DNA of 64,000 bases from a virus. The DNA is taken from IMG/VR virus record IMGVR_UViG_3300035665_003403, positions 64,001-128,000 of that record; one strand, 5' to 3'. Below the pieces are notes generated by a model that was not told the DNA's origin, ran no database searches, and saw only the letters and a list, made by a program, of their open reading frames with translations. A program made the translations under genes and the position numbers. This document shows positions 11,800-14,004 of the stretch, in pieces (within the stretch, counting starts at the first letter, position 1; every line of letters starts with the position of its first letter).

Positions 11800-12343
11800 T
11801 CATATATTAAGAGCCTCTAAGAAGGTAATGGATAAAGTTGAAACAGGTGACTTTACACCAACAGGAATCAATGCAGAATCACTGGTAACTCATGGTGAAC
11901 TTCTATCCAATTTACCAAGCAATGCACCAATAAGAACAACAAAAGCTAGTCTTTCTGAAGTAGATGAAAGAAATGCTTTGGTTAATGACAAAAACTTAAT
12001 TATGAATTCTAATTTACCAGATGTAGTGAAAAAATATATGATTGATAAACCAATTAATGTTCATGCACCAAAAAGTAAAACTAGTTTCACAAGAGAAGAT
12101 ATATTAGGTAGTGATGCCGATGAAAAACCAATGGGTATACCAAAAATCACAAATATAAAACCCAAAGCAATTACCGAAAACTACAACCCAAATATGATTA
12201 CAATCGATAAAAACGAATTGAAATCATATATACAAGAAGAAATGATTAATTCTTTATTGAAAGAAAGAGATAAGAAATTAATCGATGAAACTATCAAACG
12301 TACAATCACTACCTTGATAAAAGAAGGAAAAATGAAACGATAA
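11762..12343 (+). CDS. Hypothetical protein
   Basis: 193-aa ORF ending just before a terminator. Confidence 0.7.
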   Translation: MENQPSADLNRLSHILRASKKVMDKVETGDFTPTGINAESLVTHGELLSNLPSNAPIRTTKASLSEVDERNALVNDKNLIMNSNLPDVVKKYMIDKPINVHAPKSKTSFTREDILGSDADEKPMGIPKITNIKPKAITENYNPNMITIDKNELKSYIQEEMINSLLKERDKKLIDETIKRTITTLIKEGKMKR

Positions 12344-12345
12344 TT

Positions 12346-12372
12346 AAAACACCCATTTGGGTGTTTTTTTTT
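12346..12372 (+). terminator. Rho-independent terminator
   Basis: AAAACACCCA-tt-TGGGTGTTTT plus a T run. Confidence 0.85.
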
Positions 12373-12380
12373 ATCTAAAC

Positions 12381-12409
12381 TTTACTTAGATAAAAAATAT
12401 GATTATAAT
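12381..12409 (+). promoter_or_regulatory. Sigma70-like promoter TTTACT-N17-TATAAT
   Basis: Canonical spacing; lies upstream of ATG 12476. Confidence 0.65.
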
Positions 12410-12475
12410 TGTTTAGTAATTTGGGAATCAGATTATAAAAAAATAAAGATAAAATAATAAAATTAATTAAAGATT

Positions 12476-13738
12476 ATGGAGAACCAACAAAATATGGCCC
12501 CAGACAGTCGTAAATTTCGCATTCTTGTAGTGCCTAGCGACAGGTCTGGGGTCAGCTGAAGCTTTTTTAGAAGTACAATACCTCATATGTATCTTGAAGA
12601 AAAATATCCTGACTTATTTTCAATAGATATTGATTACGAACCAGACCTTTCAAACGATAATTTCTTAAAGCAATATGATTTGATTCATTATCATAGAACA
12701 TTAGGTTCTTATGAAACTATGGAAGATACTCTAAGGAGATTAAAATCATTTAATATCCCATCAATTATGGATATTGATGACCATTGGGCACCTGGCCAAC
12801 ATCACCCAGCATATTTAGTTATCAAGAATAATCAATTAGATAAGAAGATATTGAATAATGTCAAGTTGGCTGATAACATCACCACAACAACACCATTGTT
12901 TGCTGCTGAGATTAGCAAGGTAAATAAGAATGTATTCGTGTTACCCAATGCGATTAATCAAAATGAATCTCAGTTTATTCCATCACCAGAACAATCCAAT
13001 AGAATTAGATTTGGGTTCATTGGTGGAAGTTCCCATTTGCATGACCTAAAAATATTAAATGGTCTTGTAAATAAGCTTAAATCAGAAGGTTACATGGATA
13101 AAATACAGTTTGTATTGTGTGGTTATGATTTAAGAGGCAACATGACTGTTATAGATGAGAAGACTGGAACACAAACCCAACGTCCAATTAAACCAACTGA
13201 AAGTGTTTGGTACGAATACGAAAAAATATTCACTGACAATTATTCAACTGTAAGTCCAGAGTACAAAGAGTTTTTACTTAAATTCAAAAATGAGGAATAC
13301 CCTAACGTTGCTAACGAACCTTATAGAAGAGTTTGGACTAAGCCAATTACATCATATGCTACTGGTTATAATTTATTTGATGTTTCATTGGTACCATTAG
13401 AAGAAAATAATTTTAATTATGTAAAATCTCAATTAAAATGTGTTGAAGCTGGATTTCATAAAAAAGCTATAGTTGCTCAAAATTATGGTCCATATACAAT
13501 TGATTTAAAAAACATAATTATGTTTGGTGGTGAAATTGATAAAACTGGTAATGCGATATTGATTGATACCAAGAAAAACCATAAAGATTGGTTTACGACA
13601 ATAAAGAAATTAGTCAATAATCCAGAATTGATTAAGATTATGGGTGAAAATCTACATAAAGACATTACATCTAAATATTCTTTAGATGCTGTATCAGAAA
13701 GTAGAAAAGACTTATATTTAAACCTTATTAACAAATGA
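12476..13738 (+). CDS. GT-B fold glycosyltransferase with an in-frame TGA at 12557-12559 (recoding candidate)
   Basis: MENQQNMAPDSRKFRILVVPSDRSGVS*SFFRSTIPH is in frame with track ORF 12587-13738, which has MDIDDHW, VLPNAI, FGFIGGSSH and FNYVKSQLKCVEAG. Confidence 0.8.
12495..12554 (+). promoter_or_regulatory. GC-rich stem-loop inside the coding sequence, ending at the AGC before the TGA
   Basis: TGGCCCCAGAC (12495-12505) pairs with GTCTGGGGTCA (12544-12554). Inner pairings are GTCG/CGAC and GCAT/GTGC. Confidence 0.7.
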
Positions 13739-14004
13739 GAATATCACTTTTATTATTTCTATTTTTAATCCTTATGGGTTGTGGTGAAAAAGAATCTGAA
13801 AAACATGATAGGATTATGAGTGAATTGGTTTGCCCAGTAATTCTAATAGGCAAGACAGATAAAGCATCAGTATTACCATCAATTGTTGTTTTAGATGGTG
13901 ATGGTAGAGTTAAAACAATAAGCCAAGGTGCTGGTGATGGATATAAAATGCCATCAGCTATATCTCAAAGTAGAGAAATTGGTGATACTTTAAAAAATAA
14001 TTAG
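13735..14004 (+). CDS. Putative lipoprotein
   Basis: MRISLLLFLFLILMG-C signal peptide and lipobox. Confidence 0.7.
   Translation: MRISLLLFLFLILMGCGEKESEKHDRIMSELVCPVILIGKTDKASVLPSIVVLDGDGRVKTISQGAGDGYKMPSAISQSREIGDTLKNN

Follow-up and report, generated by a model that had tools for sequence, protein, structure and literature searches.

A candidate short translational hop associated with a mobile homing-endonuclease cassette in a jumbo-phage glycosyltransferase gene

So far, efficient programmed translational bypassing has been documented in a single phage family, that of T4 gene 60 with its homologues, and in the mitochondria of one yeast. The gene 60 bypass lies within a MobA homing-endonuclease element (Manning & Atkins, bioRxiv 10.1101/2022.08.31.505936), and pairing or folding of the mRNA leaving the ribosome has been proposed as its driver (10.1101/2024.12.09.627546). 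According to a 2022 survey, similar bypassing had not been reported in phages outside the gene 60 homologues (10.1101/2022.08.31.505936), and our full-text literature searches returned nothing on glycosyltransferase bypassing or on a second phage bypass family. Here, we analyze a stretch of viral DNA of 64,000 nucleotides (nt) (positions 64,001 to 128,000 of IMG/VR record IMGVR_UViG_3300035665_003403; hereafter the window), in which the 5′ end of a glycosyltransferase gene is interrupted by a stop codon flanked by identical serine codons (AGC-TGA-AGC) and preceded by a long hairpin. An initial annotation had proposed a minimal bypass element that tunes or times glycosylation. The comparison of alleles presented below supports the bypass element, but lends no support to the tuning or timing of glycosylation, since the element appears to be part of a mobile endonuclease cassette instead. 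We put the probability of a programmed short translational hop inside such a cassette at roughly 0.8. It is also quite likely that the cassette constitutes a second, independently evolved natural phage bypassing family, characterized by a hop of 5–10 nt, a covarying 5′ hairpin, a homing-endonuclease cassette and a host group that does not use Shine-Dalgarno (SD) sequences.

The locus shares several properties with T4 gene 60. The codons for take-off and landing are matched and would be served by one retained peptidyl-tRNA (Gly in gene 60, Gly or Ser here), a stop directly follows the take-off codon, an N-terminal extension is added, and the insertion sits in a highly conserved coding stretch beside a homing-endonuclease gene, with a scattered and apparently recent distribution. 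As for MobA and gene 60 (10.1101/2022.08.31.505936), a decay series can be arranged from an intact endonuclease over a pseudogene or remnant, and loss of the endonuclease with the bypass kept, to loss of the bypass. Unlike gene 60, which encodes a topoisomerase, the host gene encodes a GT-B glycosyltransferase, and the endonuclease carries NUMOD3 and a weak PD-(D/E)xK-like match. The gap measures 2–7 nt here versus 50 nt in gene 60, and the gene is not split in two. Moreover, the A site leaves no room for a take-off stem-loop, which is a conserved element in gene 60, and the mini-SD located 6 nt before the landing codon of gene 60 is missing in this phage without SD use. The long covarying 5′ hairpin is conserved here, whereas the 5′ stem-loop of the gene 60 family is not (10.1101/2022.08.31.505936). 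Lacking topoisomerase homology, the take-off stem-loop and the mini-SD, the cassette is not a member of the T4 gene 60/MobA family.

Three other systems offer partial parallels. The first cases of bypassing were non-programmed hops over a slow or stop codon, with 9 nt specifying one amino acid (cited in 10.1101/2022.08.31.505936). The window allele has the same geometry of codon, stop and matching codon with a +6 move, and re-pairing is likewise independent of frame. The early hops were, however, of low efficiency, in synthetic or mutant sequences and without dedicated stimulators, whereas the present element is natural, occurs in about 50 alleles with a dedicated hairpin, and resides in a gene under purifying selection. 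These non-programmed cases are reportedly those of Weiss et al. 1987 and O'Connor et al. 1989. The byp elements of Magnusiomyces capitatus mitochondria are also mobile GC-rich inserts in an AT-rich genome, with an AU-rich gap, tolerant matching of take-off and landing codons, and no SD involvement; they differ in comprising 27–55 nt, in being miniature elements spread within one genome, in using an unassigned sense codon rather than a stop, and in having no endonuclease partner. Finally, the +1 frameshift of the RF2 gene (prfB) similarly combines a pause at an A-site stop with an upstream element that promotes forward movement of the mRNA, but there SD:anti-SD pairing drives a shift of just one base, onto an overlapping codon. 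An RF2-type +1 shift can explain neither the +5, +6, +8 and +9 alleles described below nor the absence of extra residues.

At the window locus, the reading frames were found as initially annotated. The ATG at position 12476 starts an open reading frame (ORF1) of 27 codons on the + strand, encoding MENQQNMAPDSRKFRILVVPSDRSGVS and ending in AGC (12554–12556), TGA (12557–12559) and AGC (12560–12562), after which FFRSTIPHMYLEE follows in the frame of the 383-amino-acid (aa) ORF reported by gene callers (12587–13738, start ATG 12587). The start at 12587 was not conserved in other alleles, and no conserved downstream restart codon was present among the alleles compared. The 6 nt proved real, in that they were retained in other assemblies and in contigs from lake-water runs: the window sequence from 12330 to 12650 was identical in three other assemblies (in L003 only from 12447, where its contig starts), and contigs of three lake-water runs spanned the break site with no indels, so the break is not an artefact. 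When viral and metagenome contigs were scanned with exact patterns for the window's own allele, allowing a gap of 0–12 nt, nothing was found, and hence no copy of the window cassette without the 6 nt, although records nearly identical to the window may be missing from what these scans covered. A blastn search of 12300–13800 against the phage collection returned no match. A special tRNA (suppressor or expanded anticodon) was not supported either, since the 148.8-kb record, which covers ~44% of the genome, contains no tRNA gene.

The glycosyltransferase family is huge (thousands of matches of 408–430 aa), with at least 591 members in IMG/VR. Its best Foldseek matches were GlgM, BshA, MshA and PimA (E about 1e-8), and a match to the glycosyltransferase phrog_7162 was obtained at 3e-40; Pfam gave no family for the 383-aa protein or the read-through protein, and a PDB sequence search with the glycosyltransferase profile gave insignificant matches only. 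In an AlphaFold2 model of the intact homologue P0001 (mean predicted local distance difference test score of 63, mostly >80 in the N-terminal domain), strand β1 spans residues 7–12, a loop 13–18 and helix α1 19–34. With Rossmann-like N-terminal features present, the family is predicted to be a GT-B (GT4-like) glycosyltransferase. The break falls at the start of helix α1 of this model, after strand β1 and the Gly-rich loop, and a protein begun at 12587 would miss the central strand of the N-terminal Rossmann domain. Among the uninterrupted homologues (120 listed, 62 distinct loci read at the DNA level), intact members read ...[IV]LV[VI]PSDR[ST]GV[SG][YFK]FRS..P with constant spacing, from which it follows that the window contains exactly 6 extra nt. 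The closest intact relative (P0001/L004, 97% identical) reads DRSGVSFFRSTIPHMYLEE. The loop motif of the homologues, D-R-[ST]-G-V-[SG]-[YF]-F-R-S-T-x-P, agrees with the start motif given in the initial annotation, and since it lacks the two extra residues expected of simple readthrough, such readthrough is not indicated.

A long form of the gene, with ~760–780 aa after the landing codon, was observed in L087, L088, L090, L094, L108, L148 and L221. It consists of the glycosyltransferase fused to a further C-terminal part. All members found were interrupted; five of them fall in one clade and L088 branches separately.

To obtain alleles independently of the break site, 80 IMG/VR loci of the family were fetched via conserved C-terminal motifs. 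A break at the same codon was present in 7 of these loci (6 distinct alleles), with a stop directly after the take-off codon in all 7. Pattern scans, two over viral contigs and one over metagenome contigs, enlarged the total to 52 distinct interrupted alleles once chance matches and duplicates had been removed; the search pattern left the 5′ arm, the gap and the landing codon free. The take-off codon was directly followed by a stop in 52/52 alleles (TGA in 40 and TAA in 12), as the pattern search required. Between the take-off and landing codons lay a gap of 2–7 nt, A/T-rich and without conserved sequence, and after it came an RGN landing codon (R, A or G) and [YFKH][FY]RS in the downstream frame. 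The resulting take-off-to-landing shifts were +5 in 2 alleles (AGY TG AGC in L094 and L105, with the landing codon overlapping the stop), +6 in 17 (AGC TGA AGC in the window; GGT TAA GGT in L075), +7 in 14 (e.g., GGC TGAA GGT in L045), +8 in 17 (e.g., AGC TGAAA AGT in L020 and GGT TAAAT GGT in L015), and +9 and +10 in one each (AGC TGACTA AGC in L097 and GGC TGAATTA GGT in L044). Since 34 of the 52 shifts are not multiples of three, no triplet-wise reading joins the frames in those alleles. A hop to the second codon, by comparison, restores the family sequence in 52/52, with no residue gained or lost. Hop length moreover differed in 83 cassette pairs of at least 87% identity, indicating that the gap tolerates indels of a single base, as bases that are not translated should. 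In programmed bypassing, a peptidyl-tRNA lets go of one codon and pairs again at a matched, non-overlapping one. The 52 alleles have the arrangement expected for this, with frames that skipping would join, a predicted product collinear with uninterrupted homologues, matched codons and a slow codon in the A site.

The preceding 60 nt had been described as GC-rich and as folding into an 11-bp stem that closes on the first AGC, and both base composition and RNAfold confirmed this. The GC fraction is 0.45–0.52 over 12480–12560 versus about 0.28 in the surroundings (genome 28–29%), and the last pair of the predicted 11-bp outer stem involves the A of the first AGC. The fold of 12476–12600 has a minimum free energy (MFE) of −33.8 kcal/mol (z of −2.2), and no other 75-nt fold on either strand of the entire 148.8-kb record is as stable as that of the window (−29.7). 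The second most stable local fold of that record lies outside the window (G000:C1:141249–141328; −28.6 on the + strand and −26.5 on the − strand, 49% GC).

Among alleles, the MFE of the 75 nt ending at the take-off codon ranged from −24.7 to −37.6 kcal/mol in 22/22 interrupted alleles versus −3.2 to −21.2 kcal/mol in 62/62 uninterrupted ones, and a long hairpin ending on the first nt of the take-off codon was present in 22/22 and 0/62, respectively. In the site-independent set, folding energy likewise separated 6 interrupted from 56 uninterrupted alleles (Mann-Whitney p = 6e-5), and nine phylogenetically independent contrasts all pointed in the same direction (p = 0.004). Folding energy was used instead of the longest helix with G-U allowed, which did not separate the allele classes because chance helices in AT-rich sequence are long. 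When 15 alleles were aligned, 91.7% of the cells of the stem were paired, versus 30–44% with the partner slid. Six stem pairs had changed on both sides, and one pair was C-G in 6, U-A in 4, G-C in 3 and A-U in 2 alleles, and unpaired in none. The closing pair tracks the take-off codon, being U-A with AGY (Y, C or T) and C-G with GGN. The 5′ arm is encoded by an N-terminal extension that all interrupted alleles carry (e.g., (T/A/S)P(V/D/L)(G/S/N)R/GK) and that is not typical of intact alleles, the extension DNA being the complement of the [ST]-G-V codons plus the first base of the take-off codon. The conserved stop, the matched codons (AGY or GGN), the shifts of +5 to +10 and the covarying stem of this 52-allele series are what the initial annotation had foreseen for a bypass element.

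In the uninterrupted loci L030, L033 and L046, the stem is decayed or intermediate, but the N-terminal extension is still present (e.g., ...TPVSHK..., ...APVGRK...). In L030 the gap was lost together with the stem, while L033 has an intermediate stem (−21.2). These three loci are probably revertants with precise loss of the gap.

Several other roles of the hairpin region were considered and rejected. An SD-like role of the invariant GGGG is unlikely, as the record shows no SD enrichment; in a phage without SD use, the GGGG is more likely structural. A downstream barrier structure was not supported, the 63-nt fold from the landing codon being the same in interrupted and intact alleles. The hairpin with a T run does not read as a terminator either, because the T run lies 9 nt from the stem and is absent in other alleles. 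Rfam listed no family at the hairpin.

The genetic context of the interruption points to a homing endonuclease. In L004, a 254-aa gene (L004:1064–1828) is located between the upstream 193-aa gene and the glycosyltransferase gene. Such cassette endonucleases comprise 255–319 aa and contain an N-terminal helix-turn-helix and a NUMOD3 motif (L004:1064–1828, L097:2023–2937, L075:1570–2490), together with a C-terminal domain that weakly matches REase_MTES_1575, below the Pfam threshold. PHROGs labels their relatives as homing/HNH endonucleases, and a PDB sequence search with the endonuclease gave insignificant matches only. Positions 12377–12475 of the window align with the last ~100 nt of the L004 endonuclease gene, and tblastn also returned a remnant match; the rest of the window endonuclease gene appears to have been deleted between the direct repeats ACTTTACTTA, which are seen in L004. 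The promoter initially annotated just upstream of ORF1 does exist as a site (10/12 match), but it lies inside this endonuclease remnant, and one such site was found versus 2.2 expected by chance.

In 32 interrupted alleles, an endonuclease gene of at least 150 aa was located directly upstream and ended at or overlapped the new start codon, its stop lying beyond the 5′ arm in one group of alleles. Of 48 assessable interrupted alleles, 5 had endonuclease remnants and 11 had none (in 4 alleles the flanks were too short), and an endonuclease gene stood beside 2/62 uninterrupted alleles. On the gene tree, the interrupted state required between at least 9 changes (well-supported branches) and 13. 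Comparison of L020 with L008 revealed flanks of ~95% identity around a replaced tract of ~135 nt, which spans everything from the new start and the extension that contains the 5′ arm to the recoded codons and the insert of 8 nt; this tract is sharply bounded both in L020 versus L008 and in the window versus L004. The adjacent endonuclease, the patchy distribution and the co-conversion tract mark the element as a mobile cassette of a free-standing homing endonuclease.

The identity of the codons on both sides of the gap follows a strict rule. The take-off codon is always RGY (AGC in 18, GGT in 17, GGC in 11 and AGT in 6 alleles), and the landing codon (GGT, GGC, AGC, GGA, AGA or AGT) is RGN in 52/52, with the first two bases of both codons identical in 43/52. 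Intact alleles encode Ser at this site by TCN in 23/30 and Gly by GGA or GGG in 16/32, whereas in interrupted alleles TCN occurs at neither codon and GGR never at take-off. This restriction to RGY and RGN without TCN fits re-pairing in the P site rather than ordinary A-site decoding of the second codon.

We therefore propose the following, by way of a working model. Positions 12377–12562 of the window would represent a mobile cassette in decayed form, lying at the 5′ end of a conserved glycosyltransferase gene of jumbo phages. In complete form, such a cassette would carry, besides the gene of the NUMOD3 homing endonuclease, a new start codon followed by about 7–9 codons of N-terminal extension, a recoded stretch that folds with the extension into a ~60-nt hairpin, and an insert of the stop plus 0–4 nt (in the two +5 alleles, 2 nt of the stop itself). 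This insert would sit between the G/S codon of DR[ST]GV[GS] and a duplicate of the same codon. With the take-off codon (the first AGC of the window) in the P site and the A site occupied by the stop, the ribosome would pause. Behind it, the middle and apical helices, being already outside, may then re-form, while the 3′ arm of the outer stem, i.e., the 11 nt directly 5′ of the P site, would still be inside the ribosome. Zipping of the 10–11-bp outer stem could draw as many as ~11 nt through the mRNA exit, a range that matches the observed hops of 5–10 nt, so that the ribosome slides forward and the peptidyl-tRNA it has retained (Ser or Gly) pairs anew with the first RGN codon. In the window, such a hop would give a product of 27 + 391 = 418 aa, in line with the size of about 418 aa anticipated by the initial annotation, with the normal family loop DRSGVSFFRS, and terminating ribosomes would release a 27-aa peptide. 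By analogy with T4 MobA/gene 60, insertion and recoding may protect the carrier from its own endonuclease, while homing would spread the cassette among phages.

A number of observations weigh against a programmed hop. For every allele it is deduced from comparison, and the window allele, being in frame (+6), cannot by itself exclude readthrough. Most alleles were found by a pattern requiring GGGG and a stop, which inflates the uniformity of the 3′ arm. The first base differs between the take-off and landing codons in 9/52 alleles (AGY to GGC in 8, where G·U pairing with the anticodon GCU is possible, and GGC to AGC in 1), and seven alleles have a GGA landing codon after GGY at take-off. Such pairs imply that re-pairing admits some mismatch or that it does not take place at every landing codon. 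The endonuclease gene is present without gap or extension in L004 and L086, so the gap is not the sole way to coexist with the endonuclease. L214 contains a further in-frame nonsense codon, 100 codons after landing (TTA to TAA relative to L142). Finally, the mobility of the cassette means that part of the insertions may be of recent date, and their intact frames then say little.

Take-off and landing residues differ in L131, L133, L142, L148, L175, L188 and L220 (AGY then GGC) and in L161 (GGC then AGC). The L131 group differs from the matched allele L173 by the loss of one A, and residue-mismatched alleles may reflect either recombination within the gap or the deletion of single bases. They provide natural tests of the degree of mismatch that is tolerated at landing.

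The alternative that best survives these data, although unlikely, is that the ribosome slides forward by (n−3) nt without re-pairing, after which the "landing" codon is decoded and one extra G/S is added, or that mixed recoding operates, i.e., readthrough in the +6 and +9 alleles, +1 frameshifting in the +7 and +10 alleles, and +2/−1 frameshifting in the +5 and +8 alleles, with 1–3 extra residues. The mismatched and GGY-to-GGA codon pairs and the formal compatibility of the window allele with readthrough are in its favor, and in RF2 genes, too, +1 frameshifting is driven by a stop that follows the shift codon. It would, however, need three or four mechanisms for one conserved cassette with one hairpin, and extra loop residues occur in no uninterrupted homologue. 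Decoding of the landing codon also sits uneasily with its being RGN in all alleles and never TCN, the commonest Ser codon of intact alleles, and with the single-base gap indels between near-identical cassettes. As for readthrough, homologues have no residues at the position of the stop, 34/52 alleles are out of frame, and both TGA and TAA are used.

Selection on the downstream frame bears on the next alternative, namely that a selfish cassette or repair scar has inactivated a dispensable glycosyltransferase gene, with the hairpin and duplicated codon being by-products of recombination or acting at the DNA level only. The downstream frame was full-length in 38/40 complete cases (that of L127 contains Ns). 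The ratio of nonsynonymous to synonymous substitution rates (dN/dS) was 0.08–0.24 at dS >1 in two clades of which all or nearly all members are interrupted, and 0.06–0.15 over the 50 codons that follow the landing site; 11 alleles have no in-frame ATG before codon 53. Pairwise values were 0.105 for the window versus L004 and 0.034 for L020 versus its intact sister L008. These values (0.06–0.24 at saturated dS in the interrupted clades) indicate that the downstream frames are kept intact under purifying selection. A dead gene is in line with the selfish and mobile nature of the cassette, with the nonsense codon of L214, and with the truncated 383-aa ORF being all that gene callers give. Nevertheless, it is rather improbable given the 38 intact frames, the low dN/dS that extends to a stretch without possible restart, the covarying stem, strict RGY take-off and adjacent stop maintained in about 50 alleles, and the relatives without the gap that also lost the stem (L030, and L033 in part). 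L214 itself is a recent pseudogene or a sequencing error; homology continues past its nonsense codon.

Removal of the gap before translation, by RNA excision or editing or by polymerase realignment between 3-nt repeats, would leave the mRNA uninterrupted. A stable hairpin does adjoin the gap, and short direct repeats flank it; no RNA run was listed as containing the stretch. To our knowledge, no mechanism excises 2–7 nt between repeats of 2–3 nt; moreover, the gaps lack conserved sequence, whereas the constant adjacent stop and the RGY/RGN rule are translational signatures, which makes this explanation highly improbable. An assembly or sequencing artefact, or TGA as a sense codon, is refuted by four identical assemblies and three further runs, by TGA being, as initially annotated, an ordinary stop that ends 11/55 long ORFs in the window, and by 12 alleles using TAA and 34 being out of frame.

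The features of the window locus are collected in Table 1. The terminator-like hairpin at the 5′ edge of the cassette region has the same sequence in L001, L002 and L004. An antisense ORF of 39 codons runs across the cassette hairpin (12467–12586, − strand); most likely it merely results from the sequence being palindromic and GC-rich. The insert also generates overlapping CAGCTG and AAGCTT palindromes (12552–12567), which are taken as coincidence because they are absent from other alleles.

Table 1. Coordinates of the features at the interrupted glycosyltransferase locus of the window.
Feature	Position	Strand	Remarks
Terminator-like hairpin with T run (intrinsic type)	12346–12376	+	Follows the 193-aa gene upstream; marks the 5′ edge of the cassette region
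Remnant, putative 3′ end of a free-standing homing-endonuclease gene	12377–12475	+	Contains promoter-like site 12381–12409; alignment to the L004 gene, tblastn
ORF1, 27 codons: cassette-specific N-terminal extension MENQQNMAPDSRKF, then conserved β1 and loop RILVVPSDRSGVS	12476–12556	+	
Three-tier hairpin (predicted)	12495–12554	+	Outer 12495–12505/12544–12554, middle 12507–12511/12537–12541, apical 12519–12523/12529–12533
Proposed take-off codon AGC (Ser27)	12554–12556	+	First base closes the hairpin
In-frame stop TGA	12557–12559	+	Entire coding gap of the window allele: 3 nt would be skipped, with the tRNA moving +6
Proposed landing codon AGC	12560–12562	+	No second decoding if the peptidyl-tRNA re-pairs here
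ORF2, 391 codons and stop, remainder of the predicted GT-B (GT4-like) glycosyltransferase	12563–13738	+	383-aa called ORF from ATG 12587 inside

With regard to expression signals, SD sequences were not enriched before genes in the whole 148.8-kb record (G000; 6.5% versus a background of 6.9%). Gene leaders in this record are A-rich with A at −3, and a TAtaTTTG motif is located upstream of the gene in L008 and L020. Together, these features are reminiscent of Bacteroidota-type expression signals, the host itself not being identified; a genome-contig search found only phage-like contigs binned into unrelated metagenome-assembled genomes and gave no host clue.

If the proposed hop is true, bypassing would have originated independently in a far simpler architecture, one that isolates a proposed driving force, the folding of exiting mRNA, from the other elements of gene 60, namely its take-off stem-loop, mini-SD and 50-nt gap. 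The natural alleles would then amount to an experimental series covering six hop lengths, two tRNAs and two stops, along with mismatches that are tolerated and revertants that lack both gap and stem, and the cassette would be widespread in freshwater and other metagenomes. Because gene callers truncate such genes (383 versus 418 aa in the window), cassettes of this kind have probably been overlooked elsewhere. The repeated link between homing endonucleases and bypass inserts in turn suggests a general route for selfish nucleases into conserved coding sequence without introns or inteins.

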